Below the pieces are notes generated by a model. That model was given only the letters and a program-made list of their open reading frames with translations. It was not told where the DNA came from and ran no database searches. A stretch of DNA of 63,136 nt, counting the filler, from Stramenopiles sp. TOSAG23-3 (taxonomy: Eukaryota): the NCBI GenBank assembly GCA_900128585.1. It is 6 parts of 6 records of this genome, joined end to end, with 100 filler letters (N's around TTAATTAATTAA, not from the genome) between each part and the next. Parts side by side here need not be neighbours in the genome. Positions count along the whole stretch, not along the records: positions 1 to 14,769 come from LT642546.1; positions 14,870 to 29,636 come from LT642547.1; positions 29,737 to 44,452 come from LT642548.1; positions 44,553 to 59,246 come from LT642549.1; 2 more parts are not named here. One strand, 5' to 3'. Positions 7,482 to 52,295 of this stretch are shown in pieces; positions within the stretch are counted from its first letter, which is position 1, and each line of letters begins with the position of its first letter. Both the position numbers and the translations under genes were made by a program.

Positions 7482-7578
7482 TAAAAGTTAAAAACAAGAA
7501 AATTGGCTGTTATTTAAGTAATTAAATTTAGCTTCCTCGTACCCTAATCCTAACTTGATTCTGAAATTTAAAAGTTAA
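7482..7578 (-). mobile_element. T-tailed short element with a 10-bp flanking direct repeat (TAAAAGTTAA)
   Basis: 7491-7553 is identical to 22117-22179 at 62 of 63 nt. TAAAAGTTAA occurs at 7482-7491 and 7569-7578. It lies about 60 bp after the 7430 stop codon. Confidence 0.8.
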
Positions 7579-7636
7579 TCTTAAATATATTGTGTACATC
7601 ATATTTAAGAATTTTTCCATTTTATTCATTTTAAAA

Positions 7637-10001
7637 TTAAGACCCCGATTCGTTCACCCCACTTTTAGCCAATAAACGCCTCCGGGTTGATGACCGTCCT
7701 CGTCGTCTTTTTGCCTTAATAGTTCCGTAAATACCAAGAGACTGGCTTGCAGACAAAATACGATGATCGCGCATGGCAATAAATTTTCTCCTGCGGTCAC
7801 CCACGTCATCCTCATTGTCTTTTTCACCATCGCATATTATTGAAAACTTCAACCCTTTGACTGTAACGGCGCACCTTTCAACAAAGTTTCGATTCCCGTC
7901 GTATACTCGTACGAAATTAGTCGTGACCTCAGTATCGCACTCCCCCTTCGCAAGAGAATAATGGCACCGCATAAACCCTGCACCTTTTTCTCTGCAGTCG
8001 TAGACTACGTTCAGCGTGAAGGTTTTTGCATCCCAGGTAATGTCTTCGGGAGCTAAGAACTTCTCGCCCGTGTAGGGATCCGAATCTATTTCGAATTGCA
8101 ATGTCTCGACATCGCTCGTGTCGGCGTCAATGCGGCGTACGTCAATAGCAAAATCAACCCCGTTGGCTTTCATCAAGTCCATGTGCTTTGGAATGTCACA
8201 CATGTTGCTCTCCTTGTCGAATTCTGCGCCTTTTAAAAAGTCGAACAACTCATACTGCCAAGTGTCCAGACGATTGAGTCGGCTGCAATAGTCTGCACTA
8301 TGTTCGCGGTTAACCGTTAATGATTCGCTCATTTCGCTGTTTCGATGTCGATCAACCGTGTGCAAAGCCTTGTGGAAATGTACTATCGTGCTTATTGGGC
8401 AAGTTTTGGCGACGCCTACATCCCTGTACGTGCATTCATAGCCCGGTCTCCACTTATTACCCGGTATCCACTTATTAAAACCGAGGAATTGGGGGGGGAT
8501 AGAACACTGCAAAGCCTTCTCGGAACACATCTGGTACCTGCTGTAGTCCTTTTCCATGTCCAACATGAAATTATGAAGTTTCATCTGCGTCATGCCCGCA
8601 GCATTTCCCGACTTTCGGCGCCGTTGCACAATGTCTTTCAAGGCGCACAACAGGCACTTGACCATTGCACCTTCGGAAGCGTCTGGGTCGTCGCCTTGAC
8701 ACTTTGGTGAAGGGTTTGGTGGCTTATAACTCTTAAACCCTAATGGTTGTCGCATTCGTCTCTTCTCCACCGAATCTCCAAGAGTTCCCCCTCCATATTT
8801 TATTTTATAAAATATGGGGTCGACACCGTCGCTTTTCCAGTTCCTCGACAAGTGATGATAGTATGGGCATTGGCGCTCCAACTCGTGTTCGAGATTCAGG
8901 GCTTTTGCCAGTTGTGTGACAGTCGATTTGGCCTCCACAAGATTCAACTTAAGGCATTCCGATGTTGCTGCAGTCGCCTCTGTGAAACCCAAATCCTTCA
9001 TAAGAAAATTTACCTTTTTGTCAAACGCTTCGGCAACTGTGACAATCTTCTTAGATTGGGATTCCCTTAACAGAATTCGTCTATCCTTTGAGTAATCCCT
9101 CATCTCGTAGCTTATCACATGGTCCACTTCGACGCCCATAATGTCAAACGTGTACAGCCTTCTCTTTGGTTCACATTTGAACTCTGCCACGCAGCACTCT
9201 GTTCTTTTTTTTGTCACTATCTCGGTTTCAGTTTCTTTGTCGCACAGTCTCTGATGCTTCTTGCACTTAGCGCCTTTCTCTTTGCACTTTTTGGTAAGTT
9301 CTAGCTGGTGTTGCACGACGGACTTCATCGCGGTGTTTTTTTGGGCGAGTTCCATTGCCTCCTCTTCAAATTTCTGCCCTTGTAGTTCTTCAGCTTCTTG
9401 TATATCATCCCCCTTTTTCACAAAGTCCTGCAAATCGGTCCTGTGTTGGATCTCGCGTTCTTGAAAAGCTTGGAAGTCTGGACTCCTACGGTCCACATTG
9501 ATATCAATCGGATTTTTGACGGGTCCCGTTGCGCCCGGGGTCGTTGCATCAGCTGGGGCAGTTTCTGTGGCCGTTGCATCAGTTGCGGCGGTTTCTGCGG
9601 GTCCCGTTGCGCCCGGGGTCGTTGCATCAGCTGGGGCAGTTTCTGAGNGCGGGTCCCGTTGCGCCCGGGGTCGTTGCATCAGCTGGGGCAGTTTCTGAGG
9701 CCGTTGCATCAGTTGCGGCAGTTTCTGGGGCCGTTGCATCTGTCGGTGCTGGGGCCGTCTCCGCGGACCCTGTCACCGCCTGAACGTCTGGGCGCAGCCC
9801 GTTGCCACGTTTTGCCGCCAGCGATGTCTTTATTTTTCCAATATTTTTATTGGACATGAGCGATTTTAACATGGGGTTCTTTCCAGACTGACTGTTCAAA
9901 TGTGCACGTCCCTTCATCTGTGCTTTGAGGCTTGTATTGGCCGTCGCCGTCGCCACAAGGGCCAACACCATGACAGTGGATACCAATAACACACGATTCA
10001 T
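7637..10001 (-). CDS. Secreted Cys-rich protein with a mucin-like T/A/P repeat; frame broken only at the N at 9648
   Basis: The ATG at 10001 gives signal peptide MNRVLLVSTVMVLALVATATA. The two track ORFs (9627-10061 and 7637-9739) join across the single N inside the TAPADATTPGATGP repeat. The C-terminus is ...RRRLLAKSGVNESGS. Confidence 0.8.
9520..9741 (-). repeat. Coding tandem repeat (ETAPADATTPGATGP / ETAATDATA units), probably collapsed in assembly
   Basis: GGGTCCCGTTGCGCCCGGGGTCGTTGCATCAGCTGGGGCAGTTTCTG occurs three times, with an N at 9648. Confidence 0.9.
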
Positions 10002-10616
10002 TTCCTTTATTCGCTTTTGTTTGCACGATACAAATATTCCACACGAACGAACGAGCAACAATCAGAAAAGAAACGAACAGAAACAAAAATCAATTGGAAC
10101 ATACCTCAAAACCAGAACACGCTTTCTCTGTCATCACAGATTCGTACACAAACCTTTCTTTTATTTCTCGCTCGCATTTTTTTCGTTTATTCCGTTGTAT
10201 TCAATGTAAAACAAAAACAAATAAAACAAAACGATCTAAAGTGCAATAATTAAGGGTATCTTATTATAAAGGATTATATTTAATATATTTTTAATACTTA
10301 TTCATTATTACTTTTTGTAATCATTTCCTTTAATTTCCAAAATGTAATCGGTCTTCTTTCATAATTTATCAGTGAATTAATTTCTTTACTATTTTTATGT
10401 TAATAAATCAATACTATTTCTATGTATACTAAATCCCCCCTTTTTTTAGATTCCTCGCATCGATGTCCTGATGTCCTCGATAATCCTCATCTTTTCATAT
10501 ATAATAGGTATATATGTTATTATTAGTATACATAAATATTTACTTGTAATCTAATGAATTGGATTATTTTGCCGCAGCTGAATGATATTCATACGCAGAG
10601 CAAAATGACAAATCTT

Positions 10617-14769: not shown

Positions 14770-14869
14770 NNNNNNNNNNNNNNNNNNNNNNNNNNNNNNN
14801 NNNNNNNNNNNNNTTAATTAATTAANNNNNNNNNNNNNNNNNNNNNNNNNNNNNNNNNNNNNNNNNNNN
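14770..14869. other. Artificial contig-joining spacer (N44-TTAATTAATTAA-N44)
   Basis: The same 100-nt structure occurs five times; the 12-mer puts stops in all six frames. Confidence 0.97.
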
Positions 14870-22105: not shown

Positions 22106-22188
22106 TAAAGAAACTAAAAACAAGAAAATTGGCTGTTATTTAAGTAATTAAATTTAGCTTCCTCATACCCTAATCCTAAAGAAACTAA
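22106..22188 (-). mobile_element. T-tailed short element with a 12-bp flanking direct repeat (TAAAGAAACTAA)
   Basis: The direct repeat is at 22106-22117 and 22177-22188. The body is identical to 7491-7553 at 62 of 63 nt, and lies about 40 bp after the 22075 stop. Confidence 0.82.
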
Positions 22189-22330
22189 GTTGTTTTTCTC
22201 TAAAGCATACGAGCTCGTGGATATAAGAAAAACATTTGCTCATTTTCATAAAAAATTCATATTTTTGGTTCTTGAACGTGTTGACGCCCTTTTTTCTTGT
22301 TATACAGTACTTTTAAATGCCTAAATAAAA

Positions 22331-22410
22331 ATACAAGAAAATTGGCTGTTATTTTATAACAGGCATTGTTTTGTTTTCAAAACAAGACTGAACTTCCTGG
22401 TGTAAATTCA
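22331..22410. mobile_element. Degenerate nested copies of the T-tailed element
   Basis: ACAAGAAAATTGGCTGTTATTT is followed by an inverted degenerate end (ATAACAGGCATTGTTTTGTTTT), then ACTGAACTTCCTGGTGTAAATTC, which resembles 1284-1307. Confidence 0.6.
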
Positions 22411-22411
22411 G

Positions 22412-29636: not shown

Positions 29637-29736
29637 NNNNNNNNNNNNNNNNNNNNNNNNNNNNNNNNNNNNNNNNNNNNTTAATTAATTAANNNNNNNN
29701 NNNNNNNNNNNNNNNNNNNNNNNNNNNNNNNNNNNN
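29637..29736. other. Artificial contig-joining spacer
   Basis: N44-TTAATTAATTAA-N44. Confidence 0.97.
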
Positions 29737-29915
29737 AGGAAGTTGAAGTTGAATGAATGAATATATAATATAGAACAAGATGGAAGGAATATAATTAAAA
29801 TGGATTGTGTTTAATGATGAACAAAATTAGTAACGAAAGGAAACAAGGCGTATTTGGCTACTGTTCCTAAAAGGTTTGGGTGTTACTTTTATCTTTATTT
29901 TTTTTACCGGAAAGT

Positions 29916-31094: not shown

Positions 31095-31232
31095 ATATTA
31101 CAGTACTTTTCGTAAAATATAACATCTCCATTTAATTCTTGTAATATTATTTTAAGGGAATTTATAATTAAAAGTTTACAAGTATTTGGTGAAAATAAAT
31201 AATACAAGATCCAATCCTTTTTAGGAATACGA

Positions 31233-31296
31233 ATCGGATGAGGAAGGTGATTACTGGTCATTTGACATCGACGCAAATCCACCTACCGATTCGGAT
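31233..31296 (+). repeat. 64-bp dispersed repeat homologous to 44576-44639, just 5' of a T-tailed element
   Basis: Gap-free alignment, 48 of 64 identical by hand count. Confidence 0.75.
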
Positions 31297-31349
31297 CATG
31301 CACATGGGAATGACAGTCAATACTAAGTGTCAAGGTTATATTGATTAGT

Positions 31350-31495
31350 AAAACTACAAGAGCAGAGATAAGTTCGCAGTACATGAAGGAACGTAAACCT
31401 CTATTTAATGGACAAAAGGAGCAGATTCATTTTCGCGGTACATGAGGAAGATAAATTTTAATTACTTATAAAAAAACAGCCAATTTTTTGTTTTT
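31350..31495 (+). mobile_element. Longer, diverged T-tailed element copy
   Basis: AGATAAGTTCGCAGTACATGAAGGAA matches the reverse complement of 48871-48900. GTAAACC..TTTAATGGACAAAAG..AGATTCATTTTCGCGGTA matches the reverse complement of 1311-1356. It ends AACAGCCAATTTTTTGTTTTT. Confidence 0.75.
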
Positions 31496-32137
31496 ATAAT
31501 CATATCATTATTGCAGAAAGAGAGAAGAAAGCATTATCTATATTATTGCGCCAACAAAGCAGCACAACAGAGGAAGAAAAAAAGATTTTAAAAAATTATA
31601 CGACTATATTTTTTTTATACGTATAATATTAGTCGTCTAACCTACAATATTTATTAATAATTCGTATGATGAATAGACTAAAATATTTAAATTATTATTT
31701 AATATAGTCCTAATAATATGAAAATATAGTATCTGAAGAACAATATTAAATCGTAAAACTAACAGTGCCGAGGAAGAAGAAGAAGAAGACCGTTGGTTAT
31801 TTTTTTATCATATAAAAATATGAAGTGTAATTTAAAAATTAATATATCTGTACCCAAAAAGTGGAAAGTGGACCAATTATTAATAATTTATTGATGATGA
31901 TGATGCTGTGTTTATGTTATTTTATGTATATAACAAATAGTCGAATATTATTAGTCTATTAATGAGTAAATCAATTGTGTATATATACACATGTGCATAT
32001 GAATGCAAACGTATGATACACGCACTCAATTCATGATGGAGTTTGATGAAAAACGGACGAACCAAATGCCTTGGTGTTCATTTTGATTCCATCTGGACGA
32101 ATCTGAGCGCTTGTGCGGTGGCGTGAAAGTCAGTAAA

Positions 32138-34012: not shown

Positions 34013-34020
34013 TAAAAATA

Positions 34021-34181
34021 AATACAAAACATTGGCTCTGTGTTATTTAAGTGATTAGGGTATGAGGAAGCTAAATTTAATTACTTAAATAACAGCCAAT
34101 TTTCTTGTTTTTTTTTTAATTACTTAAATAACAGCCAATTTTCTTATTTTTATTTAAGTGATTAAAATTCATGTACTGCGA
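34021..34181. mobile_element. Nested insertion: a young T-tailed element with a doubled end and 15-bp direct repeat, inside an older copy of opposite orientation
   Basis: TTATTTAAGTGATTA occurs at 34043-34057 and 34150-34164. Removing the insert restores ACAAAACATTGGCTCTGTGTTATTTAAGTGATTAAAATTCATGTACTGCGA. Confidence 0.82.
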
Positions 34182-34183
34182 GG

Positions 34184-36340
34184 CTAAATTTCCTCAGGTT
34201 CTCTAATAAAAGCCGACGCCCCTGGCGCCGTTATTGCCGCTCTTTTTTTCCCCTTGTACTTGTCCTGCACGTACCGTCGAACACGATATGTGGAAACAAA
34301 TCGGCGCCAATTCTGGATCACTTTTCGTCGACGTTTTGCCATGTATTCTTTTTCCCTTTGAAACTCCATCTCGTCGTGAGCGGCCAAAACTGCATCTTTC
34401 ATTCCCTGCAATATCAGAACACCGTTGCGTACGGGAATCGTTCTTCCTTTCTTGCGCTCGAAACCTGCCACACACGGGACAAACTCTATATCTAATTTTT
34501 TCACCGTCAACTCAATCTTGGGTAAGTTCAAATGCAAAGCCCCTGAGGGCACGTGCCCGGCAGTCCACACTTCCCAGTTACCAAAGTCGTTTCGGGGAAT
34601 TTTTCCATCTGTCACGGGAGGTGGCACGTATACCTGCGTTTGCCAAAATCCATACAAGGGTACTTCTACCGTTCTTTTCTGGGCGTGCTCTTCATCTTCG
34701 TCGTCTTCGTCACTAGTGAGTCTATCAGATAGCATTTGCGGTCCGCCCTGACCCTGTGGCAAGCTTTTCGTCGCGAACTTTGCAGGAGTGTTGTACTCGC
34801 CTTCTTTCACTTCGCGGCACTCGCGCTTCCAGTATTTTTCCGTGTGCAGAGTCGTCACATGCTCCCGTTTATACACCGGAGCCCCACGAAAATATCCCAC
34901 AGCCTTGTCAGCCCCGTGAATGACTTGATTCTGTGTCAACAGCGACTCCAGAGCATATAATGGGTGTGTTCTAAACGCATTCTTCGTTGTTGGGATCTGC
35001 TCGTTAAGCCGAAGGGTAGATAGCTCCCTCTGCTCCTCTGATGCCCGTTTTCCCGAGGGGTAGGCCTCGCCATTTCCTTGACCACGAACATCGGCAGCCC
35101 GATTAAACGATGACATGACATATGGCAACCAATTTTCGTACTCCTTGTACTTGTCTGGAAAGTGCTGCTTGCGGGCTGCAGATGGACGGAAGGAGTACCT
35201 CTCGAGCACGTCGACTAGCTTTCCAGCATTATCAATTGCAAAGACGTACATAAGATTCTCCGTTTTCGGCCGTAACCATTCCACAGAGCTGGGCCGATCG
35301 ATCAAATGACGCACAACGTCTACATGGATCCATCGCTCTATAGTTTTGTCCGACCTCCTGACGGTACCCTTTACTGCACCTATCGATGCCGACGACTCAC
35401 CTCCGCCACTAGGTCCAGCACGCTCTGTGCTTTTCTCTATCATTCGCTTGGACTTTTTCGGGGTGGAAGACAGTTTCTTTTTGGCCCCATACAATAAATC
35501 AGCGTCCATTTGGGGCGGCAAGGCCTCCCCAAAGGCCCCTCCGTAAACTTCCACCCATGTAGTTGGGGCATTCTTCGAGCGATTGAAAGATGAGCGTGGG
35601 GACAGTAATTCCGATGCCATGTGCTTGTCCAACGATTTCCCCTTTGCACTCCCATTCGACTTCTTGCGTGTCGTGTCTTTGATTTTTTTCCTAACCCTAG
35701 TCGGTGTAACGGCAGCGACTAGACGTGCTGGTTTGCCGACGGCACGAAACAACGAACACAAGATCAAGTGCAGCTCTAACTGTGTTCCAGATTTCTTCTG
35801 GCAAACACGTATTAAACGGTCCAGTGAGACTGGTAGAAACCCTTTTGGGTGGGAATTAATTTCGCAGTTGAAGTTCTTCGCGAAATAATCTACGATCTTC
35901 TCAAGCGTGGAGGCTTTCAGAACTTTTGAATCCTGCAAAATACTCTGCATGACATCTGGACTTAAACAATAGAAGCACGCGTCGTGTACACGGGCGTCGT
36001 TGCAGATTTTGTTTTCGCGGCGGAGCCTTGCAAGTGCGAACAGCAGTTGGATTTGGTGAAGGGACGCGGCATCCCTGTGACTTCCAGGTACCACTTTCTT
36101 CTTTTTCTTCTTCTCGCGCTCCTCATCCCTTTTTCGCTTCTTGTCTATCAAAATCTTGATGCCGTCCGCAGGTATATCGACAGGTGCGCTTGGAGGTTCA
36201 ACTGTCGAACTCAATCCACCAGCAGGAACGGAAGCCTCTTCCCAATCATCGGACGAGTCACTTCGAAGTTCCAAGTCAAAACTATCATCACTACTGTAGT
36301 CACTTGAGGAGGCAGCCTCCTCTTGAACCAGAGAGCTCAT
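34184..36340 (-). CDS. XPC: DNA damage recognition protein XPC/Rad4
   Basis: Transglutaminase-like region (LFRAVGKPARLV, WVEVY, WIHVD, YVFAID, DVLERY). BHD domains: PTTKNAFRTHPLYALESLL, VYKREHV, LYGFWQT..YVPPPV.DGKIPRNDFGN and CVAGFE...PVRNGVLI. Confidence 0.93.
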   Translation of the reverse strand: MSSLVQEEAASSSDYSSDDSFDLELRSDSSDDWEEASVPAGGLSSTVEPPSAPVDIPADGIKILIDKKRKRDEEREKKKKKKVVPGSHRDAASLHQIQLLFALARLRRENKICNDARVHDACFYCLSPDVMQSILQDSKVLKASTLEKIVDYFAKNFNCEINSHPKGFLPVSLDRLIRVCQKKSGTQLELHLILCSLFRAVGKPARLVAAVTPTRVRKKIKDTTRKKSNGSAKGKSLDKHMASELLSPRSSFNRSKNAPTTWVEVYGGAFGEALPPQMDADLLYGAKKKLSSTPKKSKRMIEKSTERAGPSGGGESSASIGAVKGTVRRSDKTIERWIHVDVVRHLIDRPSSVEWLRPKTENLMYVFAIDNAGKLVDVLERYSFRPSAARKQHFPDKYKEYENWLPYVMSSFNRAADVRGQGNGEAYPSGKRASEEQRELSTLRLNEQIPTTKNAFRTHPLYALESLLTQNQVIHGADKAVGYFRGAPVYKREHVTTLHTEKYWKRECREVKEGEYNTPAKFATKSLPQGQGGPQMLSDRLTSDEDDEDEEHAQKRTVEVPLYGFWQTQVYVPPPVTDGKIPRNDFGNWEVWTAGHVPSGALHLNLPKIELTVKKLDIEFVPCVAGFERKKGRTIPVRNGVLILQGMKDAVLAAHDEMEFQREKEYMAKRRRKVIQNWRRFVSTYRVRRYVQDKYKGKKRAAITAPGASAFIREPEEI

Positions 36341-36834
36341 CAGAGTTTCAATTTTTTAAAAACCCCGCACGTGTGTCTATTCTCTCCCCGGCGTGAAACG
36401 TAGTCATGTAGAAGATTAACGTTACGTTGCCGGTATGTGCAACTGTAGCTCGTAGAGTATGCGATGCTTGATGGCGTTTCTGACAATCTGTTTTTCGAAA
36501 TGATTCGATTATATTTATAAACTAGCAAAATTTTCACATGTTCTTGAGTATTTACGATGAGCACACCCAAGAATACCATTACTGCTGCCGTCGCCACGCA
36601 AGTTTGTCCCCCCGATTATTATTATATTTTTTACCAACAACAGCCACAACAACAAAACAAACAAATTGCCTTTTTGCTGTTGTCGTTGTGTCGCTCGCCC
36701 TCCATTTTTTTTGCTGCTTTTTATTTATACTGTGCTGTGCATATATACTCTATTTGTTTTTACATTTAATATAAACACAGCAACATCAGAACCGTCGATT
36801 TTCACATGGTCAAATCTTCTTGGGAGGATGCAAG

Positions 36835-37321
36835 TATCTTTGGCGCGGAATTGAAAAATGGTGAACGAATTTGTGTTAACTATTTCAAACGAAGAGATCT
36901 TTATGAAAAAGGGATAATTATTACAATTTTAAACGGTCAAAAGTCTTTTTAGATAAACAAAATTGTGCCCATACCCCTTGATTTCCCAGAACCCACAAAA
37001 AAAATAGTGATTGGTTGGTTGGCGTTTGGTCCAAATCGTCCATTTCACACAAAATTGTCCCTAGGAACCGTAATTCCAAGTCAATTGAGGGCAAACAATT
37101 TATAAACGTTCGTTGAAGGCCGGACATCGGGATCGCAACGATAGCTTAATCTAAACTTATGAAGATGAGCGTTCTCCTTCCTTTCTTTTGTCATTTTTGG
37201 TCAGAATACTTCCATACTTTGAAATTCGAGTTGGATTTTTTTTCGCGCCAAGGACACTTAACACTTTATAGAACAGGTGTCTACTATCGCATTTTACTTA
37301 AAGAAAAACAACCACGGTCGT
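36835..37321. repeat. Dispersed repeat of about 487 bp, copy 2
   Basis: Collinear with 28635-29121, on a different contig. Confidence 0.9.
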
Positions 37322-37426
37322 GTATTTTTAATCTGGTGCAAGGGGGAGATGTACAGGTACACAGTATGGATGATTTAGATGAGCTAAAATTAAAATAAGT
37401 AGCAAAAATGCCAACAAGACGGTACT

Positions 37427-40400
37427 TTACTTCTTTTTAAACCCACTTTTTGTCCTAGATCTATCGCGTTTCTTTCGTGACACTCCAGCCTTTAGAACAT
37501 CGTCGCCTTTTTTGCTTTGTTGCATGTTAGGGTCTGACCCGTCATCGCGCATTTTTTTTACCATTGCCCTCGCCCGCTCCATCATGACTTTCTTGTCTTC
37601 CCAATACTTTTGCCCAAGAAACTTTCTCTGCAAAGCGTGCTGCAATTTGAACGCTGGATAAAGGAATGGTGGCATCTTCACGCACAATTGGTAAAAATCC
37701 TTGAATGCTACCATGGATTCCATAGTCTTGGGGTTCATGTTCAACTTCGTATTTGCGAGTTTCATTGCGTTTCGGCTCAAGACCCCGGGTGCTTGTCTGT
37801 CCATCATTTGAAGAAGACCCTGGACGTCGTGAGCTGTGGCATGCCTGGTTCCATCCGGGTCAATCATGCTCCAAAAGAAGCGCGCCATGAGTTCAATGTC
37901 GAACAAGCAAAAGTGGGATATTGCTTTCACAAACATTCCAAAGTCAAGTATTTCTCCCGTCACCTTCTCCCCGACTGGGTGGTCGTGGAACTTGAATATG
38001 TGTTCGGAAATAGTTGTTCGGAGCTCCCCAACGTACTCGAAAAACTCGTCGAGGTCCACAGTGCCACTGTAATCAGCGTCCATCTTGTGGAACGCACCCC
38101 GCAGAAATTCAATATCGTCAGTCGAGTATCCAACGAATTGGACCTGCTCGAGGAGAAGCTGCCTGCTATGACCGTCCATGGACAGACTAGCCACGTCCAT
38201 TGCATCACGAGGGATCAGTGCTTCTGTTTGCGCGTGTTTTTGCTTGGCGGTCATGGCCGGGGTCGTGTGCTTCAGGAAAAGGTGGCACCCTTCGTCCATC
38301 CCAAACTCTTCAAAAGAGGGTTCGACCTTTTGCCAGCCTTGTTTTACAATTTTTTGCCTTGTTCGGGCATCTGTCACTGTCCGCACCCCACGGATCAGGT
38401 CCGTGCCGTCACGTCTGAACTGAATTTCAAATTTGCACTTCGGGTTCCACACAATGTTGAAGCCTTGCTTTCGCAACTCCAACCGACGAAGCTCCGCCTC
38501 GTGTTTGTTGTGTAACTTTGGGGGCTTGACAATCATCACATCGGTCAAAATATGAGCAGTTCTTTCTTTCCCAATTTTTTGCCATATCTGAATATACTTC
38601 GGGCGGTGAACTTTTTGCCCCTGCGACATCTTGTATGCCGTGTGATGGACGTCTGGTCCCACCTTTTCGAAATATTCTCTTTCCTCGTGCATGTGCACTT
38701 TCTGTATGTCGAAGAAATTGTCCAGTTCCGTTTGGCCGACTGTGATCATCAGGTCCACAACCCCAGTTTGAGCTACCATAATCTTTTGCCTGGCTTGAAT
38801 AGAGTATATCATATTCTTTAACTCTTCTTGCTCCAGCTGCTCTTTCTTTTCATCGTCAAAATGGGCTTCGACTTTTTCCAAAACAGACTCTGCCTTCTCC
38901 AGCGCAATGTAAGGGGCTTTCTTCACCAGCATTCGCACTTTCTCCGGGTCAGACACGAGCTCTTTTGCCCTTTTGAGCTTGCCCTTCCACGTTTTTCTCT
39001 CCAAGGCTTCCTTTGCTACCTCTTCTTGGTGCTCCTTGATTCTTTGTTCCTCCAGTCTCTTTGCTTCGAGCGCTGCGCGTGCAGCGGCCATTCTGATTTC
39101 ATACTCGACATGAATTCGCCAATGTTTTTGGATCAACGCAGCACTTCGATGCTTAATTTTCCTCATAAGAGCGTCTCGCCGCCGCTCCCACGCCAGCTGA
39201 ATGAGTCTCCGTTTCTCCCTAAGCGCGGCTGCCCTTCGTTCCGCTTCCCTGTTCTTCAGAACAATTCGGTACGCCCACTTTACCTTCAGCGACGTAAACC
39301 ACCGTTTCAACCTCGTGGCGGCCGCGTGCGCTGCGACTTTGAACTCGTTGAATCGGCGCTTCCCTAGAAAGCCCCTCATGACTGCCTGTATCTTTGTTGC
39401 CAGTTCGGTTTCTTTGACAAACTGCTGGTACCTTTGTATCGCCATCTGGTTCCGATTCCACAGAATCGTCCTCCGCGTTCTCTGGATAATGATAGCGGCG
39501 CCGTTTCGAAGGATCATGTCCAACCTCCGTCCCTTTGGAGTAGATCTTTCTTCCTCCCTCCACACATTGTACAGTGCCTTGGCCTTGGCCTTCACTTTGT
39601 CGTCGGCCCGCTTGTTGTACCGTTCGTACAATTTATCGAAACGGATCTTCCGCTTGTACAGCCTCGCACGATAATGTTTCTGCAGCAACGTCGCTGCATC
39701 CCTCCGCTCTCTGCGAACCCCCAGTTCGTGGCGAGCAAGCAGTCGTCTTGCGTGCTTCTGTATTATTGTCGCCGCCTCCTTCTCTATCTTGTCCCTAAAC
39801 TCTCTGGCTTTCTTTTTCAAGTACAAGTGAAAGCGGGCATCCGACATTCTGTACGCGTTCTGTACCTTTTTGACGGCTGTCAGCAACTTGACTCTCCAAA
39901 CAGCAAACCATCTCCTCTTCGACGAACAGCGATAGAATGTTTGTATTCTCAGGGCCGCGTAGTTGTACTTAATTCTTCGGTTGTGCACAAAATGTATCGC
40001 AGCATATCTTCGCCACGCCGTCTGAATCCTCAGGCTTTTCTCCAGCTCCAATCCTTCTCTAAAAAGCCTCGCTTCGCGAGCAAGGATCAAGTGTAATCGA
40101 CCAGAGTGGCATCGAAACGACCGTTGAACCCTTACGCATGCGCTGGTGAGCGCTTCCCGCCACTCCCTGGCTCGTCGGATTGCCAGAAACCCTCGCATTA
40201 GTGCCTGTATGGCAATGGCGGCCTCGATCTCCCGTACACGCCTATTTTTCTGTCCTAGGAACTTAAAGTACCCGACATGCCCTCGGTATGTTCGCTGTAC
40301 CAACAAGACTGCATTTTCTAGCTTAATATTCCACAACCGGATTTCCTCTCTCCTGTTGATTGCGGCTATTTTACCGTACCGGTACATCCTCCACATGCTC

Positions 40401-43400
40401 TGTATTTTGATGGCGCTCAGAATTTCGAATGCGCGGAAGAGGGTTCGTCTATCGTTCAAGCTGGCCTTGGCGGATTGTCTCCTGCAGTACTGCATCCAGT
40501 GATATTGAATGATTTTCGCCGCATCGATGATTTCTTGCTGTTTTTTTAAATACCTCTCTCGCGTCCGCATGTATGCCCCTTTCGCCAGTGGCCGAAGCCC
40601 ATTAAACCCCGCTGTTGCAACAGAGGCCACTTGCGCAAGTGGGAGAATTGCAGCAGCAGGCCGAAGGCAACCTGGGTCTACATCGGTACACTTCGATATA
40701 TTCAGGAGCTGCAGAGATGGGCAATACTTTGCCATCGACAGGACGGACTTCGAAGTAATGTCCAGAAGATTACCAGCGTTCACGTGAGACAGCAGCGGAA
40801 GACACGGGACAAGATCACAAATGGACACGTCCGTTATCCATTTGCAACACCGAATGTTGAGCCTGGTCAGGTTGGAGCATTTTTGTAAGCATAGCAACCC
40901 CCTATCGTGAATATCGGAGCAGCGAAACAAGTTTAATTCGCGCAAGGAAAGCAGCGGCTCAATGTCTGGGAACGTTAATGAACAGCCTCCCAAGCTGGCC
41001 ATCCCCTCGTCGCTAATTTTTACACACCCAGACACGTTCAATGACGATAGTCTCGTGCAATAGGTCGCGATAGTCGTCAAACTGCTGTCTGTGACATTCC
41101 CGCACCCAGATATATTTAAACTTTGCAGTTTTCGGCAATGTTTTCCGATGGCATGAACAGAGGAATGCCCGACTTGAAACAAACCACACAAGTTCAATTT
41201 CGTCAAATTTTGCATCTTTGAAATAGCACCACCACCTGCATCCGTAATGCTCGCAATGCCGTAAAAAATGTTCAGACCTGAGTTGCTAACGTTGTACCTC
41301 CCCGAGACATTTAGATCTGTCAATGATTTGCTTGCCGGAGAGTTCGCCAAAGCTATGAGTGACCTTTTTGTCAGATGGTCTACTCCAATCAGAACTAGGG
41401 TATTCAACCTCTTGCACTCCCCAAGCGAAGCAACTCCGTAATCTGTGACCTGTTTGCAGTCTTTTATATTCAAACGCTGAAGCCCGGGCCCGGGGTCTCC
41501 TTCAGCACCTTTTTTCTGCAAAAAGTTAACGACTTCGATCTTACCCAAAGAAGCGGCGATCGACATAGCGGTGAGCCCATCCTTTCTAGTCGCATTTATG
41601 TCAATCCCATTTCCGACCAGCAAAACGACAATGTCTAGGTGCCCCAGACGGGCCGCAACGTGTAGCGAATTTTCGCCGGAAGACATGACCTTTCTTTTTA
41701 TTTCACTTTTTCGTTGTATTAAGAACAGTGCCAGGTCCAAGTGGCCATGTTTGCACGCATGGTATAGCGGAAAAGTAAGGTCTCGTTCCTTCAGGTTGAC
41801 ATCGGCTCCATTGTTTAACAGCGTTTCCACTAGTTTGGACTCACCTGCAATAACAGATTTCGTTAGAGTGGTGTATCGAGCACTGCTCTCATTATCCTCC
41901 TCATCGCCCTCCTGATCATCATCTTCCCCCACTGAGTTGCTGCTTTTCCCGTTTAAATATTTCGCCAGGCAGAGGAGAGTTTGGTCGGTTATCAACGAGC
42001 AGTCGGATAGGTTCAATGCGGTTATATTGGTGCACCGGCCAGCCAGTGCTTGGATACCCGTGTCACTTATTTTGCTACAGCCACAGAGATTAAGCTCTAT
42101 CAGACCACTTCCACAGCCCTCTGATATCCAATCTAGACCAGAATCACCAAGCTGCATATTGGAGACGTCAAGAAATCGCAAACATTTAAACGAATTCGGG
42201 CCGTGATGGTGTAACGCAGAAAGTGCGATGTCAGTTGTTCCATGCGCCCCATGAATGTTGAGGTACTCGACATGACCCCGCAGAGACGTTATCAATTGCA
42301 TCATACCTGCATCAGAAACATTTGTGCACCCCGCTACGTTCACTTTCTTCATCTTTGCTGCAAACGGTATTTTCGAATGGCCAGCAATGGCTTGCATCGC
42401 ATAATCACTCACACTATTGCACTGTGCTATTTCCAACGTGTTCAGATGTCGACATCCCATGACCAAGGCTTCTATTCCTGTGCCAGTAATATTCTGGCAC
42501 CCAGAAAGATTGAAATACTCTATTTTCGAGTGTGTCTTTACAAATTTAATTACACCAACGTCCGTAATATTCTGAATATCAGAAATGTCTAAGGACTTGA
42601 TGCTTCTGCAGCCATCCAGAGCTTCCAAACCTTGGTCTGTAACAAGAGTACAGAATTTTATGTGCAACAACGTGATGTTCTTATGGTTTGATTTGGAGTC
42701 TGCCAAAGATTTCAAAAATGCGTCGTTAACGGGCCAGTAAGACAGGTTCAATTCCATCATCGGCACAGTAAACAATAAATCCCTGTACAAAAGTTGTTTG
42801 GGCAAAGCGACCGTGAAAAGCTCTTTCAAAGTGCATTCCTCCCTGACAATATTCATCCGTTGCGAGGGAACAATTCCGTCTGTAATGTCCTCCAAAATGT
42901 CTGTGCTGACATGTCGATCTTCTGGGTTTGCTGTAGATGGGTGATGTATAACGCTGGGTTTAGGATAATTTCCGACCATTTTTCTCCCCTCTTCGACTTT
43001 TTTGGATTCGAAGAGAGGTGAAGAGCCAGGGTTGACGGGGCGTTTGCCCGAACGAAGCGTTTGTATCCTATCAAGTTTTCGCGCGAGCGCTGCTTTTCTC
43101 CTCCTGATGACCGCCTCATCTTTTGTCTCCGCCCGGCCCTTAGGAATATCAAATTTCGATTTACGTGCTCGTCTCTCATTTGGAGCTGTGCTCGGTCTAG
43201 AACTCCTCCGACTGCTTGCAATGCTACCATTATAGTCCAGCGTCCTCCGCGGGGTAGCGTAAGGAGAAGGGACCCCAGAGCCCCTGTTGGACCGGCGACT
43301 TTTAGCAGACTTGGCAGACTTTGGCCGTCGTTTTCGTCCGCTGCCCTTTTCTTTAGTTTTATACGGAGAATCAAAACCGCTCCAAATTTCGGGCAACGGA

Positions 43401-43576
43401 TCGGTTCGTCTCCTCTCCTTCTTCCTGCGGTACACAAAAGCTATGGTAGGGCTTCCGGTCACCTCGTTTTGGGCAAAAACTGCGTTACCATTTGGTCTAC
43501 GGAACTCATTGTCCTTCCCGTAGTCTCTTGGATGGAGCAACGGCTCTCGCCTGCCAAAAGTATTCTTATTTGACAT
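37427..43576 (-). CDS. 2049-aa protein: cysteine-containing LRRs interrupted by ankyrin repeats, many IQ motifs and C-terminal EF-hands
   Basis: Many LNLSGCxxITDxG repeats, ankyrins (PLYHACKHGHLDL, SLHVAARLGHLDIVVLL) and more than 10 IQxxxR motifs. EF loops are MDADYSGTVDLDEF and IDPDGTRHA. Confidence 0.9.
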   Translation of the reverse strand: MSNKNTFGRREPLLHPRDYGKDNEFRRPNGNAVFAQNEVTGSPTIAFVYRRKKERRRTDPLPEIWSGFDSPYKTKEKGSGRKRRPKSAKSAKSRRSNRGSGVPSPYATPRRTLDYNGSIASSRRSSRPSTAPNERRARKSKFDIPKGRAETKDEAVIRRRKAALARKLDRIQTLRSGKRPVNPGSSPLFESKKVEEGRKMVGNYPKPSVIHHPSTANPEDRHVSTDILEDITDGIVPSQRMNIVREECTLKELFTVALPKQLLYRDLLFTVPMMELNLSYWPVNDAFLKSLADSKSNHKNITLLHIKFCTLVTDQGLEALDGCRSIKSLDISDIQNITDVGVIKFVKTHSKIEYFNLSGCQNITGTGIEALVMGCRHLNTLEIAQCNSVSDYAMQAIAGHSKIPFAAKMKKVNVAGCTNVSDAGMMQLITSLRGHVEYLNIHGAHGTTDIALSALHHHGPNSFKCLRFLDVSNMQLGDSGLDWISEGCGSGLIELNLCGCSKISDTGIQALAGRCTNITALNLSDCSLITDQTLLCLAKYLNGKSSNSVGEDDDQEGDEEDNESSARYTTLTKSVIAGESKLVETLLNNGADVNLKERDLTFPLYHACKHGHLDLALFLIQRKSEIKRKVMSSGENSLHVAARLGHLDIVVLLVGNGIDINATRKDGLTAMSIAASLGKIEVVNFLQKKGAEGDPGPGLQRLNIKDCKQVTDYGVASLGECKRLNTLVLIGVDHLTKRSLIALANSPASKSLTDLNVSGRYNVSNSGLNIFYGIASITDAGGGAISKMQNLTKLNLCGLFQVGHSSVHAIGKHCRKLQSLNISGCGNVTDSSLTTIATYCTRLSSLNVSGCVKISDEGMASLGGCSLTFPDIEPLLSLRELNLFRCSDIHDRGLLCLQKCSNLTRLNIRCCKWITDVSICDLVPCLPLLSHVNAGNLLDITSKSVLSMAKYCPSLQLLNISKCTDVDPGCLRPAAAILPLAQVASVATAGFNGLRPLAKGAYMRTRERYLKKQQEIIDAAKIIQYHWMQYCRRQSAKASLNDRRTLFRAFEILSAIKIQSMWRMYRYGKIAAINRREEIRLWNIKLENAVLLVQRTYRGHVGYFKFLGQKNRRVREIEAAIAIQALMRGFLAIRRAREWREALTSACVRVQRSFRCHSGRLHLILAREARLFREGLELEKSLRIQTAWRRYAAIHFVHNRRIKYNYAALRIQTFYRCSSKRRWFAVWRVKLLTAVKKVQNAYRMSDARFHLYLKKKAREFRDKIEKEAATIIQKHARRLLARHELGVRRERRDAATLLQKHYRARLYKRKIRFDKLYERYNKRADDKVKAKAKALYNVWREEERSTPKGRRLDMILRNGAAIIIQRTRRTILWNRNQMAIQRYQQFVKETELATKIQAVMRGFLGKRRFNEFKVAAHAAATRLKRWFTSLKVKWAYRIVLKNREAERRAAALREKRRLIQLAWERRRDALMRKIKHRSAALIQKHWRIHVEYEIRMAAARAALEAKRLEEQRIKEHQEEVAKEALERKTWKGKLKRAKELVSDPEKVRMLVKKAPYIALEKAESVLEKVEAHFDDEKKEQLEQEELKNMIYSIQARQKIMVAQTGVVDLMITVGQTELDNFFDIQKVHMHEEREYFEKVGPDVHHTAYKMSQGQKVHRPKYIQIWQKIGKERTAHILTDVMIVKPPKLHNKHEAELRRLELRKQGFNIVWNPKCKFEIQFRRDGTDLIRGVRTVTDARTRQKIVKQGWQKVEPSFEEFGMDEGCHLFLKHTTPAMTAKQKHAQTEALIPRDAMDVASLSMDGHSRQLLLEQVQFVGYSTDDIEFLRGAFHKMDADYSGTVDLDEFFEYVGELRTTISEHIFKFHDHPVGEKVTGEILDFGMFVKAISHFCLFDIELMARFFWSMIDPDGTRHATAHDVQGLLQMMDRQAPGVLSRNAMKLANTKLNMNPKTMESMVAFKDFYQLCVKMPPFLYPAFKLQHALQRKFLGQKYWEDKKVMMERARAMVKKMRDDGSDPNMQQSKKGDDVLKAGVSRKKRDRSRTKSGFKKK

Positions 43577-44239
43577 TAGTTGTTCCTTCAGGCAAAGGTT
43601 TTCATTTTATCGAAATGGAGCGGATAGCTGATTAAATAAGAAATTGATAGCAGAGCTTGTTTTCAAAACTTTAACGTAGAAGAATTTCCCGATTGACCAC
43701 ACTCGAGCAGGAAAGAAATGACACCAATATAATTGCAGGTTGAGACCGAACTCCTTGTAAATATTTGTTATTTTACCATCCAAGGTATCGTTTTCCAATT
43801 ATTATTACTATTATACTACATACACTGCTGTAGTAAGGTGGTGGGTGGTATTTTTCTTACTTCTTCGTTCGTCAGTATTATTTCGTTCCTTTGTATTTGC
43901 TTATACATGTAATATAATAGACGACAAACAATAAATACGGGATCATTCCTTCTGGTCTGCTACGAGGAGTCTATTCCATTGCAGAATAGTTGCTATGACA
44001 ATTAAATAGTTAGGAAGTTGATAGTATTTTATCGTTGTGCATTATAGTAGACGATAAACTAATTATTATTATTTTCTCCGAAAAAATAACATTGGTGTAG
44101 CAGCATCTCAACAAATAGTTGAACTGCAACGTCCCGCAAAAAAATACTTCATTTTTTCAGCGAAGAATTGGGGTATATATGATAGGGGTACTGTCCGCAG
44201 GACTACAAAATATTCGTACTGTACAACCTGTTCCTCCAG

Positions 44240-44452
44240 TTATTGTGCTGTGGCTCGCTGCTCTGCTTTTTTCTTTCTCATATTTTCTAAGAAAGCCTTG
44301 TCTCGTGAAGCTTGCTCAGAATCCCGGGCTGCTTTTGCCCTAGCTGCTCTCATGTGGCGCACATACTGTACTAACTCTACCAACATTTCAATATGCAGGT
44401 CTTTCTGATCTTCTTCCATCTTCTCCAGAGCCAATTGCCGTCGCAGGGCCAA
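44240..44452 (-). CDS. C-terminal fragment of a coiled-coil protein (5' part lost at the contig end)
   Basis: Open frame from the spacer edge to a TAA, with a charged helical composition. Confidence 0.55.
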   Translation of the reverse strand: MALRRQLALEKMEEDQKDLHIEMLVELVQYVRHMRAARAKAARDSEQASRDKAFLENMRKKKAEQRATAQ

Positions 44453-44552
44453 NNNNNNNNNNNNNNNNNNNNNNNNNNNNNNNNNNNNNNNNNNNNTTAA
44501 TTAATTAANNNNNNNNNNNNNNNNNNNNNNNNNNNNNNNNNNNNNNNNNNNN
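44453..44552. other. Artificial contig-joining spacer
   Basis: N44-TTAATTAATTAA-N44. Confidence 0.97.
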
Positions 44553-44575
44553 ATTGATTTATCTCTGAGTGAGAT

Positions 44576-44639
44576 ATCGGATGAGGAAGTTGATTACGGT
44601 TCATCTGCAAGCATTGCCAATTCAGATACCGCTCCGGAT
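44576..44639 (+). repeat. 64-bp dispersed repeat homologous to 31233-31296
   Basis: 48 of 64 identical. It lies in a frame open from the contig edge (44553) to TAA at 44667-44669. Confidence 0.75.
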
Positions 44640-44695
44640 AGTTCATGGACTCCACTTAAAAAAAAATAAAATGATTGACAACCATCAATGAGACG

Positions 44696-44779
44696 AAATT
44701 ACAGAACCAAGTTAGGATTAGGGTACGACGAAGCTAAATTTAATTATTACTTAAATAACAGCCAATTTTTCTTGTTTTT
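44696..44779 (+). mobile_element. T-tailed element copy
   Basis: AAATTACAGAACCAAGTTAGGATTAGGGTACGACGAAGCTAAATTTAATT(ATT)ACTTAAATAACAGCCAATTTTTTCTTGTTTTT aligns with the reverse complement of 7491-7569. Confidence 0.82.
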
Positions 44780-44888
44780 AATAAAACTTGTACGAAAACT
44801 TAACAAATTCTTAATAAAAGAATACTCAAATTCCCCATCTTGGTAAAAATGAAGATTCTTTCTTTTCCAATGCTATAATTACAACCAG

Positions 44889-48582: not shown

Positions 48583-48690
48583 ACGGGGGCTCAAATTTAA
48601 AATTTTTAATTAAAATGTTTTTCGTGCAATATTTTTAAAAAGCAAAAAAAATATCTCTTTAAGACAAATTTAGTTTGGAGTTTTTAAATC

Positions 48691-48956
48691 TAAAATAACA
48701 GAGCGAGCCAATTTTTGAGTTTTCAGTTCGCAGTACATTTAACTAATATAATTTGTTTTTCTAATTCAAGAAAATTGGCTGTTATTTTAAACAAGAAAAT
48801 TGGCTGTTAATTTAAGTAATTAAAATTAATGTACTGCGAACTGAAATCTAGATTTAGACATTCTAGGTTTGCATTCTTTCATGAACTGCGAACTTATCTT
48901 TGCTCTTTTGGTTAATTTTAATTTTACTCAAATAACAGCCAATTTTCTTGTTTTTA
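48691..48956. mobile_element. Cluster of at least four T-tailed element ends in both orientations
   Basis: 48789-48809 and 48933-48953 form a perfect 21-bp inverted pair. There is a doubled end at 48767, and 48721-48739 is inverted relative to 48828-48846. Confidence 0.8.
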
Positions 48957-49031
48957 AAGAATGAGTTACAGAATTTTTTTAAATCTAAAGTTGAGTTTGA
49001 GTTTTGATTTTTTGTTTTGTAAAATTAGAGC

Positions 49032-50339: not shown

Positions 50340-51018
50340 GCTCGCTCAGGTCTTAGCCCAGCATGAAAATTCTGAAATAACCCGAACGTTTTATAATGTT
50401 TTTTGATCCTTTAAATCGATATTTAAAGAGGGGTAGGAATTGTAAAATCACATCTGGTACCTCTTCTTTTTCCCCGAATTCTCAATAATAAATAGAGTAT
50501 ATTATTAATCAGTAAAATAAGACAATATGAGAAAAGAACGAAAAGAAGAAAGAAATATGAAAAGAAAAATATGAATGAATGAAGTAGTTTCAGTATAGGT
50601 TGTAATGAACTGCCTTGTTTGTGCCCACCAACGCCCCTCCCCCCCCCTCTTTTCCTCCGTCCTGTCGTCAGAGTGTTCTCCTTCGTTGTTGTGGGTGTTC
50701 TTGTGTTCGTTTGCTTTTTGCTTCCTATTATATGAATAGCGCTGTGGTGATGATGATGATGGTTTGTTGAGAATAATAATAATAAAATAAAATAATTTAA
50801 AAAAAAAAAAAGATTTTTTCTTGATGATTATTTTTTCTCGTACGTCGAATTTTCACTAATACTACAGTATATTATAGTATTGAAAAAATAAATTGAAAGA
50901 GTAGTGTGCGAAGAGAGAAGAAGGGATAGATTTAACGAGCGTGATTGCTTCGTATACGGAGAGGGCAAACGTGTTGAACCCATTAAACCGTTCGGTTCTA
51001 CGTCTTTGCGGTTGAAGA

Positions 51019-52059
51019 ATGTCACGTGCTCGTTTGCGAATGGGTAGGACGGAGTCTTCCTCGTCGACGAAAAGGTATGTGATTGTTGTCGGCTGCAGTG
51101 GGGCTATAGGTCAGCGGCTCGTTCGTGGTTTGTTGCAACGAGGGTACGCTGTGGTCGCTCCGTTGCATAGAACGCCTTTGCCAGATGATCTAGCCGGTAA
51201 AAAGCATGTTCATCAAGAGTTTGGTTTTGATATTCGATCCCTTGAAAAAGTCGATCAGCTTTTCAGAAAGTATGCTGGAGATGTGTGTTGTGTTTGGAAC
51301 TTGGCGGCACCTCTGTCCGTGCAGTCCGAAAGAGACCCTAGCTACGCGGAGGACATTACGGTTAAAGGGATGGAGCGCATTCTTGCTTGCATGACTAAGT
51401 ATGGTGTGAAGAAGATATGTTTTAGCGATAGCATAGGCAGCTTTGGAGAATCTTCCCCTCGGGAAAATTGCCCTGGCAAGTGGTTGGTTGAAAACCCTAA
51501 ACAAGATCCAGGGAGTACTTACGGCCGACAAAAACGAAGCTGCCGCGAACTCTTAAACTCGTTTTCTAGGAGGGTTGATGGCGGAGACACTCGTTGGGCG
51601 ATAATTCCTGGCGTGCTACATGATAATAAAGAGTGGGGGGCAGGAACAACGGAGTATGCGTTGGCGGCGATAAAGTCTGCCGTCCAAGGCATCCCATTCA
51701 AATGCCCCGTTCCAGTAGAGAAGGATCTCCCTATGATATATTCGGACGATCTCGTGAAAGGTTTAATGGCCTTGATGGAAGCACCGCGCGGGGATTTAAA
51801 AGAACCAGAGAACGGTTATTCAATATGCGGGTTCAGCTTTAGCGCAAAGCGCCTTTTTCAAGAATTGAAGAACAAATACTACCCGAACTTCCGGTGGACC
51901 CTGCAGTTGGATGAACAGGGAGCCGCTTTGTTTGCTGACGCTTGGCCATGTTCATTATCAAAAATAGAGGCCCAGCGGGATTTGCTATTTGAAAGTAGGA
52001 TCCACTTTGCCGAAACTATAAAGAGGATAGTCGATGCGCACGCCCGCATGTTTCAGTGA
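51019..52059 (+). CDS. TDH: L-threonine 3-dehydrogenase, extended-SDR (GalE-like) type
   Basis: GCSGAIG Rossmann motif, NLAAPLS, SDSIGSFG, YGRQK (YxxxK), GAGTTEYA (TDH GGGTTDYA), LPMIYSDD and FADAWP. The Arg/Ser-rich N-terminus may be a mitochondrial presequence. Confidence 0.85.
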   Translation: MSRARLRMGRTESSSSTKRYVIVVGCSGAIGQRLVRGLLQRGYAVVAPLHRTPLPDDLAGKKHVHQEFGFDIRSLEKVDQLFRKYAGDVCCVWNLAAPLSVQSERDPSYAEDITVKGMERILACMTKYGVKKICFSDSIGSFGESSPRENCPGKWLVENPKQDPGSTYGRQKRSCRELLNSFSRRVDGGDTRWAIIPGVLHDNKEWGAGTTEYALAAIKSAVQGIPFKCPVPVEKDLPMIYSDDLVKGLMALMEAPRGDLKEPENGYSICGFSFSAKRLFQELKNKYYPNFRWTLQLDEQGAALFADAWPCSLSKIEAQRDLLFESRIHFAETIKRIVDAHARMFQ

Positions 52060-52143
52060 TAATTTTTTTTCGCGCCCACAGGCAAAGTTTGTACTAAGTA
52101 CAATATATTCTCTTATATTATTAATATTCATATGTTCTTTGTT

Positions 52144-52295
52144 AAATAAGAAAATTGGCTGTCGCCAAATTATTATTATGTTGTTTTATAAGACTCTCAT
52201 TTTATTAAATCAATTATTATTACTATTTCAGTTCCAACCCTAATCCTATCTTGATGGTTTTAGGCTGTTATTTTATATAGTAATAATTAAAATTA
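52144..52295 (-). mobile_element. Old degenerate T-tailed element fragments
   Basis: AAATAAGAAAATTGGCTGT, ACCCTAATCCTATCTTGAT and GGCTGTTATTTT...GTAATAATTAAAATTAA lie downstream of the TDH stop. Confidence 0.55.

Follow-up and report, generated by a model that had tools for sequence, protein, structure and literature searches.

Short T-ended repeats between convergent genes of a marine stramenopile: probable 5′-truncated copies of a divergent non-LTR retrotransposon

RESULTS

Copies of a T-ended module in the window

We analysed a stretch of 63,136 bases of Stramenopiles sp. TOSAG23-3 (hereafter the window), in which runs of N at 14770–14869, 29637–29736, 44453–44552, 59247–59346 and 61192–61291 separate the pieces. 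It is laid out as long intron-free open reading frames (ORFs; ∼45–50% GC) between AT-rich gaps. The genes are eukaryotic and include those for a ciliary B9 protein, a CDK-like kinase and Rad4; neither a tRNA gene (ARAGORN) nor an Rfam family, the hammerhead included, was found in the window. An initial annotation had described a module with a T-rich end, present in about 15 copies on four contigs, as a candidate family of short retroposons accumulating at gene 3′ ends. This module and the larger element to which it probably belongs are the subject of the present study.

A 32-mer of the module, CAAGAAAATTGGCTGTTATTTAAGTAATTAAA, occurs four times in the window with at most three mismatches (7495 and 22121 on the plus strand, 34076 and 34115 on the minus strand; 0.00 expected from 100 shuffles), and a 15-nt core occurs eight times. 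BLAST of the window against long reference copies gave 14 intervals of one repeat family, corresponding to at least 16 insertion events, on four of the pieces and at the places where the copies had been reported. On the element strand these copies have the common end ...CCAATTTTCTTG(T)0-7, while the opposite end stops at variable points. Four variants of the 3′ untranslated region (UTR) can be told apart (A, A′, B and B′); the last ∼35 nt are all that they have in common.

Three inserts are flanked by exact direct repeats, which we could read directly. A 5′-truncated type B copy of 77 nt (7492–7568, minus strand; also found by BLAST) lies between two TAAAAGTTAA of 10 bp (7482–7491 and 7569–7578). 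A type B copy of 59 nt (22118–22176, minus strand) lies between two TAAAGAAACTAA of 12 bp (22106–22117 and 22177–22188), and is near-identical to the former (62 of 63 nt, or 98.4% over 63 nt, for the copies near 7491 and 22117). The third insert, of 92 nt (34058–34149, plus strand), comprises two copies in tandem, one of type B that ends in T10 (∼34058–34117) and then a tail-only one of 32 nt (∼34118–34149), and has landed within the tail of an older, oppositely oriented type A copy. The 3′ part of this older copy (34015–34057, minus strand) includes the left duplication, TTATTTAAGTGATTA (34043–34057); the right one, of 15 bp (34150–34164), opens the interval that holds the remainder of the interrupted copy (34150–34181, minus strand). 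Microhomology at the truncated junction amounts to 1, 3 and 5 nt at the duplication sites 7482, 22106 and 34043, respectively. By BLAST these three inserts were delimited as 7485–7569, 22115–22179 and 34053–34154. Thus the three flanking repeats, the range of microhomology and the near-identity of two copies were all reproduced as originally reported.

The other copies are as follows. A type A copy of 149 nt (1224–1372, minus strand), with its 3′ end ..CCAATTTTCTTGTTTT at 1228–1243, stands head to head with a type A fragment (1445–1515, plus strand). In this fragment the terminal 12-mer is missing or degenerate, so that the fixed end, which holds for the copies generally, is not shown near 1505. 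A tail fragment of ∼31 nt (22324–22354, minus strand; BLAST) has no flanking repeat that we could find. An older type A copy of 268 nt (31233–31500, plus strand), located in a tandem intergenic region, runs into the last codons of the element's ORF and is 79% identical to a copy on metagenome contig L019. A type B copy of at least 234 nt (44553–44786, plus strand), cut by the piece boundary, starts within the ORF (..IDLSLSEISDEEVDYGSSASIANSDTAPDSSWTPL, stop) and continues into the 3′ UTR and the tail. An internal 3′ UTR fragment of 27 nt (48713–48739, plus strand; BLAST) is followed by an interval on the minus strand (48767–48913) that holds a short tail copy (48767–48790) beside a type A copy of ∼125 nt; a type A tail copy of 49 nt (48912–48960, plus strand) stands head to head with it. 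A tail fragment of 19 nt lies at 52144–52162 (minus strand).

DNA nearly identical to that of the window recurs across numerous marine metagenome runs, and also in three small assemblies of a single organism. Extra copies were obtained by scanning contigs of public metagenomes with a part of the module 22 nt long, which gave at least 120 contigs (810,590 nt; the fetched contigs, or loci, bear names of the form L0xx) with 133 exact matches to that part; a 16-nt core had 188 matches in the contigs and the window together. The copy statistics given below rest on these contigs and on one read-mapping comparison, in which sequencing runs are denoted X5, X8 and X15.

Structure of the insertions

In the contigs as in the window, all copies end AAAACAAGAAAATTGG.. 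(..CCAATTTTCTTGTTTT on the other strand), and the stop points at the far side form a continuum. Read from the T-rich end, types A, A′, B and B′ align collinearly; towards the 5′ side they are variably truncated. The inserts range from 16 to more than 500 nt, every one of them beginning at the T-rich end; the 48 copies that have duplications span 19–528 nt, with a median of ∼50 nt. The shortest copy, on L069 at ∼2455–2500, is just the terminal 12-mer followed by four T, 16 nt in all, and is flanked by two AAAAAGTTAT.

We searched 161 non-identical copies for exact repeats abutting the fixed end, using flanks permuted between copies as the control. Repeats of at least 10 nt flank 48 of them, against 8.19 expected. 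The duplications are of 10 (7 copies), 11 (12), 12 (13), 13 (5), 14 (5), 15 (5) and 17 bp (1), with a mode of 11–12, and are nearly all different in sequence, indicating dozens of distinct AT-rich targets. Of the 48 inserts, 33 are preceded by A and 15 by T, and none by G or C. Many insertions had hit the tails of older copies. Among 32 junctions, microhomology of 1–5 nt was seen in 11, of 10 nt in one and of 0 nt in three, the remaining 17 being negative or unaligned; this tally is descriptive and has no chance control. Variable 5′ truncation and duplication length, noted in the window at the outset, were seen in the contigs as well, and the excess of flanking repeats over chance, proposed earlier as a check, was obtained there.

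An empty-site allele was also found. L069 and L054 are 97.1% identical over 2686 nt, and L054 lacks 42 nt where L069 carries a 23-nt copy between two AGCTAAGATAAATTT. Neither terminal inverted repeats nor a constant length was found among the copies, and the ends of the three duplication-flanked inserts of the window are unrelated to one another.

Metagenome mapping covered window positions 29737–44452 in three DNA metagenomes, with unique depths of ∼3, 8 and 5. Element-bearing bins reach depths of 200–9400 (1500–9400 in X5, versus ∼8 for unique sequence), from which it follows that the populations sampled contain the family in hundreds of copies or more; other related organisms may add to the depth. 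Directly past the T run at 34111–34112, contigs diverge into unrelated sequence (20–33 contigs in X5 and 25 in X8; flank agreement 0.41–0.46), while those entering at 34053 continue into longer element sequence. These two observations give independent support for the fixed 3′ end and for a local 5′ truncation. Contigs run from the unique flank into the 34058–34149 insert in two metagenomes, so the site is filled in those populations. The RNA run X15 carries element sequence as well, in contigs that cannot show transcript ends.

Position of the copies relative to genes

Taking ORFs of at least 250 aa in the loci and the window as genes, we found copies in 56 of 73 gaps between convergent genes (83 copies, 1.73 per kb), in 11 of 68 gaps between tandem genes (14 copies, 0.22 per kb) and in none of 50 divergent gaps (0 copies in 55.7 kb); a single copy lay within an ORF. 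The loci were selected for holding a copy, which leaves the contrast among gap classes inside them unaffected. The window alone gave the same picture, gaps with copies being 6 of 7 convergent, 1 of 6 tandem and 0 of 5 divergent. As for the 48 duplication-bearing copies, 23 are in convergent, 3 in tandem and 0 in divergent gaps, 13 lie at a contig edge by a gene's 3′ end and 2 by a 5′ end, and 7 have no gene call. AT content was considered as the cause of this bias and ruled out, as the GC of convergent, tandem and divergent gaps is similar (0.343, 0.365 and 0.335, respectively).

The median distance from a copy to the nearest stop codon is 107–112 nt, and the antisense strand of the element runs with the nearest gene in 54 cases versus 29 (p = 0.008). 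The reported accumulation at gene 3′ ends is hence borne out in a sharper form: whether by survival or by aim, the copies are confined almost entirely to gaps between convergent genes. Targeting or the loss of harmful insertions may bring this about.

The 3′ end and sense strand of the source element

In the longer copies of all four variants, one and the same ORF end, ..SEISDEEVDYGS.., precedes the 3′ UTR and the T-rich end, and the window copies at 44553–44786 and 31233–31500 extend into the last codons of this ORF. Because the ORF reads along the strand that ends in T, the tail is an oligo(T), as originally proposed, and not poly(A) read backwards, and the truncation is a 5′ truncation. The sense strand ends in ..CTTG followed by 0–7 T, and thus lacks the poly(A) or simple-repeat tail by which long interspersed nuclear elements (LINEs) are recognised; such a tail is not universal among LINEs, R2 being without one. 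Folding of the tail RNA gave nothing better than shuffled sequences (z-scores 0.09 to 1.5 for five sequences, one of them on the wrong strand), so recognition would be by sequence.

On L034 (152–165, minus strand) we observed a distant lineage (34% aa identity) in which the stop codon of the ORF overlaps the terminal 12-mer CCAATTTTCTTG. This lineage may have almost no 3′ UTR, and the single case hints that the 12-mer is the essential terminus.

Three other candidates were discarded. Two copies of ∼1.5 kb, on L019 and L034, seemed to share a 5′ end, which was rejected as the element start because longer ORFs continue upstream. Large ORFs beside the copies, at first taken for possible parts of the element, turned out to be host genes (HAT_KAT11, kinases, kelch, NPR3 and others). 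An OTU-protease-like impression of L019:3–920 was without Pfam support, was not repeated elsewhere and was dropped.

The element ORF and its putative enzyme motifs

A whole-library HMMER search with a 225-aa fragment of the ORF returned 107 proteins, all of them short fragments. Word-index searches led to ORFs of 744–851 aa, whose 90% clusters include P0123 (1689 aa, on a 5554-nt contig), P0151 (1655 aa) and P0137 (1422 aa). These ORFs are located on contigs outside the window, in line with the earlier statement that the window encodes no reverse transcriptase (RT), and the long versions are 56–83% identical to one another. A relative of the protein, a eukprot cluster member, is named ‘Stramenopile-MAST_4’ in one source.

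P0123 contains IRPIAIGE at 396, DAKNAFNS at 460, QGDPIG at 532 and FADD at 586, spaced 66, 69 and 54 residues apart, which we take to be RT motifs 2, A, B and C of LINE-type enzymes. The four motifs were seen in this order in 3 of 3 long ORFs, whereas 0 of the 483 other ORFs of at least 200 aa in the loci and the window contain the chain. Further downstream, ten of ten aligned sequences have invariant C1235, C1245, H1254, C1258, H1268-N1269, D1333 (QADGL), D1391 (WDVHF) and K1409/K1412/Y1413 (KGQKY), and the nuclease-side motif chain was found in 13 of 160 proteins compared. The order after the RT is hence CCHC, helix-1 H, D, D and K..KY. For the restriction-like endonuclease (RLE) of R2Bm, PMC4838377 gives the order CCHC, (R)H, xxD, D, K..KY.

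Pfam gave only a sub-threshold zinc-finger match, located at the knuckle. Extension of the long copies, suggested earlier as a way to an RT and an endonuclease, arrived at putative RT motifs and an RLE-like block at the level of motifs; GIY-YIG and the apurinic-type endonuclease (APE), also named at that time, were not matched in Pfam. AlphaFold models (mean pLDDT, the predicted local distance difference test, 42.6 for P0122 and 33.7 for the RT part, modelled with three sequences) were too poor for a fold search, and the enzyme assignments therefore stay at motif level. No match was obtained in a tblastn search of P0137 against plasmids.

P0123 and P0137 are filed at NCBI as proteins of a gammaproteobacterial metagenome-assembled genome; their contigs are probably eukaryotic and misbinned. 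The gene call P0091 (419 aa) joins an N-terminal part resembling FAE1/type III polyketide synthases to element ORF sequence; most likely the gene prediction ran through an insertion. At its N terminus (the first 35 residues), P0123 looks chromodomain-like, in one sequence and without Pfam support, and no such domain is claimed.

Other repeats nearby

An unrelated repeat of ∼500 nt lies at 36830–37330 of the window, matches 6–7 other places in the loci and has a depth of 670–826 in X5 versus ∼8 for unique sequence. Its ends resemble short inverted repeats, ..TTGGCGCGGAA / TTCGCGCCAAGG.., and for this reason it is possibly a miniature inverted-repeat transposable element (MITE). A further repeat family often adjoins the LINE fragments (window 52175–52275; L019 832–1316; also L059, L016, L111 and L073). 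Between window positions 43900–43998 and the orthologous L043 (96.4% identical), there is a 99-nt presence/absence difference that contains no element sequence.

DISCUSSION

Interpretation and proposed mechanism

We consider it highly probable that the module is the 3′ end of a non-LTR (long terminal repeat) retrotransposon family, that is a LINE family, of a marine heterotrophic flagellate, and that the short inserts are 5′-truncated, dead-on-arrival copies. The retro-insertions of the initial annotation are thereby retained, while its distinct non-autonomous family is replaced by a truncated autonomous LINE: the short inserts derive from the 3′ end of the autonomous element itself, of which at least two sublineages are represented, and are not a separate short interspersed nuclear element (SINE). 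The observations behind this interpretation are the anatomy of the copies, their duplications, one empty site, the genomic distribution, and the ORF with its motifs.

From these we infer an RNA intermediate, a nick site and the enzyme activities, in the following manner. The full element would be ∼5.5 kb long, with one ORF of at least 1689 aa and a 3′ UTR of 100–200 nt. The predicted protein would comprise an N-terminal region of unassigned type, a very divergent RT, a CCHC zinc knuckle, a PD-(D/E)XK-like nuclease block and a long, acidic and Ser-rich C-terminal extension. This protein would nick AT-rich DNA after A or T, and the A-rich 3′-OH would pair with the U-rich RNA end and prime the complementary DNA (cDNA), i.e. 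target-primed reverse transcription. Synthesis would mostly abort after 12–300 nt, giving the variable 5′ truncation, and the cDNA end would be joined to the other break via 0–5 nt of microhomology. A second-strand cut 10–17 bp away would produce the variable duplications. New copies would often land in the tails of older ones, giving rise to tandem and head-to-head clusters.

A bolder version, in which we place little confidence, would place the element on a deep branch of endonuclease-bearing LINEs that has yet to be classified; its RT would be too divergent for standard profiles, and it would recognise a 12-nt unstructured RNA terminus, CCAAUUUUCUUG. Integration would then be actively aimed at the termination zone between convergent genes, as opposed to mere survival of copies in it, and the clusters in about three-quarters of such zones would now act in 3′-end formation or in insulating convergent transcription in an abundant predator of the ocean.

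Alternative explanations and opposing evidence

Several findings weigh against the LINE interpretation. Flanking repeats of at least 8 nt are absent from 100 of the 161 copies, which are old, nested in others, or have repeats mutated beyond recognition. A single empty site was found, with a few small sequence differences beside its gap; for the 34058–34149 insert no empty-site joint was seen among the joints listed, which is uninformative either way. No full-length DNA copy with both ends was seen, the full-length ORFs being on other contigs. On the protein side, the motif patterns were composed after the sequences had been seen and partly from general consensus motifs, the ‘RH’ and ‘KPD’ of R2 are HN and QAD in the element ORF, and the RG.W motif was not found. 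Pfam gave no RVT_1 match for P0123, P0137 and P0151 even at E up to 10, NCBIfam and PADLOC had no match for the element ORF, and phmmer against PDB sequences returned nothing for P0123 and chance-level rows only for P0122. An hhalign comparison of the RT alignment with the RT of the diversity-generating retroelement of Bordetella phage BPP-1 had a probability of 0.6%, a value that is uninformative because this relative is very distant and the profile is shallow.

The failure of every library to recognise any domain is what one would expect if the element were a retroelement of another kind than the RLE/R2-like one, for example a Penelope-like element, a LINE of the APE type, or a lineage of RTs, as yet unclassified, that has a different nuclease. 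Tandem and head-to-head partial copies also occur in Penelope-like elements, and the nearest named atlas cluster carries only zf-RVT (score 0.87, a lead only). The nuclease that would mark the first two, GIY-YIG or APE, was not matched in Pfam in any of the three long ORFs, whereas the invariant CCHC knuckle followed by D, D and K..KY stands after the RT in the order of R2, and no hammerhead or other Rfam match turned up when the window was scanned. We regard a retroelement of such another kind as unlikely. The shortness of most copies (median ∼50 nt among the 48) and a window that holds no RT would equally suit a separate SINE-like, non-autonomous retroposon that borrows the last ∼35 nt of the LINE and is mobilised in trans. 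Such a family should be recognisable by a head of its own; the copies have no common 5′ head and form a truncation continuum, the longer ones are collinear with the 3′ UTR and ORF end of the LINE, and no tRNA, 7SL or 5S-like part was detected, the window being free of tRNA genes and Rfam families. A borrowed tail is, in our judgement, quite improbable.

The two remaining explanations do not involve retrotransposition. Copies in 56 of 73 convergent gaps, at a median of 107–112 nt from the nearest stop codon, with an orientation bias of 54 to 29 (p = 0.008) and with the module in RNA contigs, could be read as a native conserved 3′-end signal of the host genes, a terminator or a motif of the poly(A) region, rather than as mobile DNA. 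We hold this to be very unlikely, since the duplications differ from site to site in sequence and length, insertions are nested in older copies, an empty site exists, and the sequence is continuous with a 1689-aa ORF; copies may nevertheless have been co-opted secondarily as a 3′-end signal. Inverted pairs (1224–1515 and 48767–48960) recall a MITE or another cut-and-paste DNA transposon, which had been put forward earlier as the case to be tested against. Each pair consists of two independent copies of unequal length, the duplications measure anything between 10 and 17 bp, a fixed end stands opposite a ragged one, and the inserts go down to 16–25 nt, so that the length distributions contradict it; the fixed inverted ends and constant length of a MITE were looked for and not found, and we give this explanation hardly any credence.

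Comparison with known systems

No description of the element was found in the literature searched: the main text of the MAST genome paper PMC5778133 contains none of ‘transpos’, ‘repeat’ and ‘reverse transcriptase’ (supplements, Repbase and Dfam were outside the search), and most of the MAST-4 genome literature searched is without mention of ‘retrotransposon’ (supplements likewise outside). The LINE family described here offers a concrete, testable picture of retrotransposon life in a gene-dense protist genome. As the coding element escapes Pfam, NCBIfam and PDB searches, such elements are missed or mislabelled in marine metagenomes, and fragments of 16–60 nt with a constant end of 12–35 nt are easily mistaken for regulatory motifs in 3′-end annotation. 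R2-like elements are reported to be under development as gene-insertion tools (PMC13580325); a relative of R2 with a short defined RNA terminus and another target rule could inform such tools.

Retrotransposon safe havens in compact genomes include the tRNA genes reported to be targeted in Dictyostelium and yeast (PMC5006619). Our element resembles those systems in that the genome is gene-dense and the copies are located at a low-harm class of sites. It differs in the class itself, which is the gap between convergent genes and not RNA polymerase III genes, a haven distinct from the tRNA-gene and ribosomal DNA (rDNA) ones.

With L1-type LINEs the element shares the fixed 3′ end, the variable 5′ truncation, duplications of ∼10–17 bp, junction microhomology and an AT-rich nick site. 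Unlike L1, it has a tail of 0–7 T on the sense strand in place of poly(A), no APE domain was found in it, and its truncation is extreme, many copies being of 16–60 nt.

With R2 and the other RLE LINEs (R2, R4/Dong, NeSL, Utopia and CRE) it has in common a single large ORF in which the putative RT motifs are followed by CCHC and D..D..K..KY (the order given for R2Bm in PMC4838377). It also shares the lack of a poly(A) tail, a conserved, specific 3′ terminal RNA sequence and an insertion resembling target-primed reverse transcription. In contrast to this group, it is not specific to one target such as rDNA or small nuclear RNA genes, it makes duplications of 10–17 bp, it has an oligo(T) end and a C-terminal extension of ∼280 aa after the nuclease block, RH/KPD are replaced by HN/QAD, and its putative RT is not recognised by Pfam RVT_1. 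Taken at the level of motifs, the layout of the putative protein is nevertheless closest to that of the RLE (R2-like) group.

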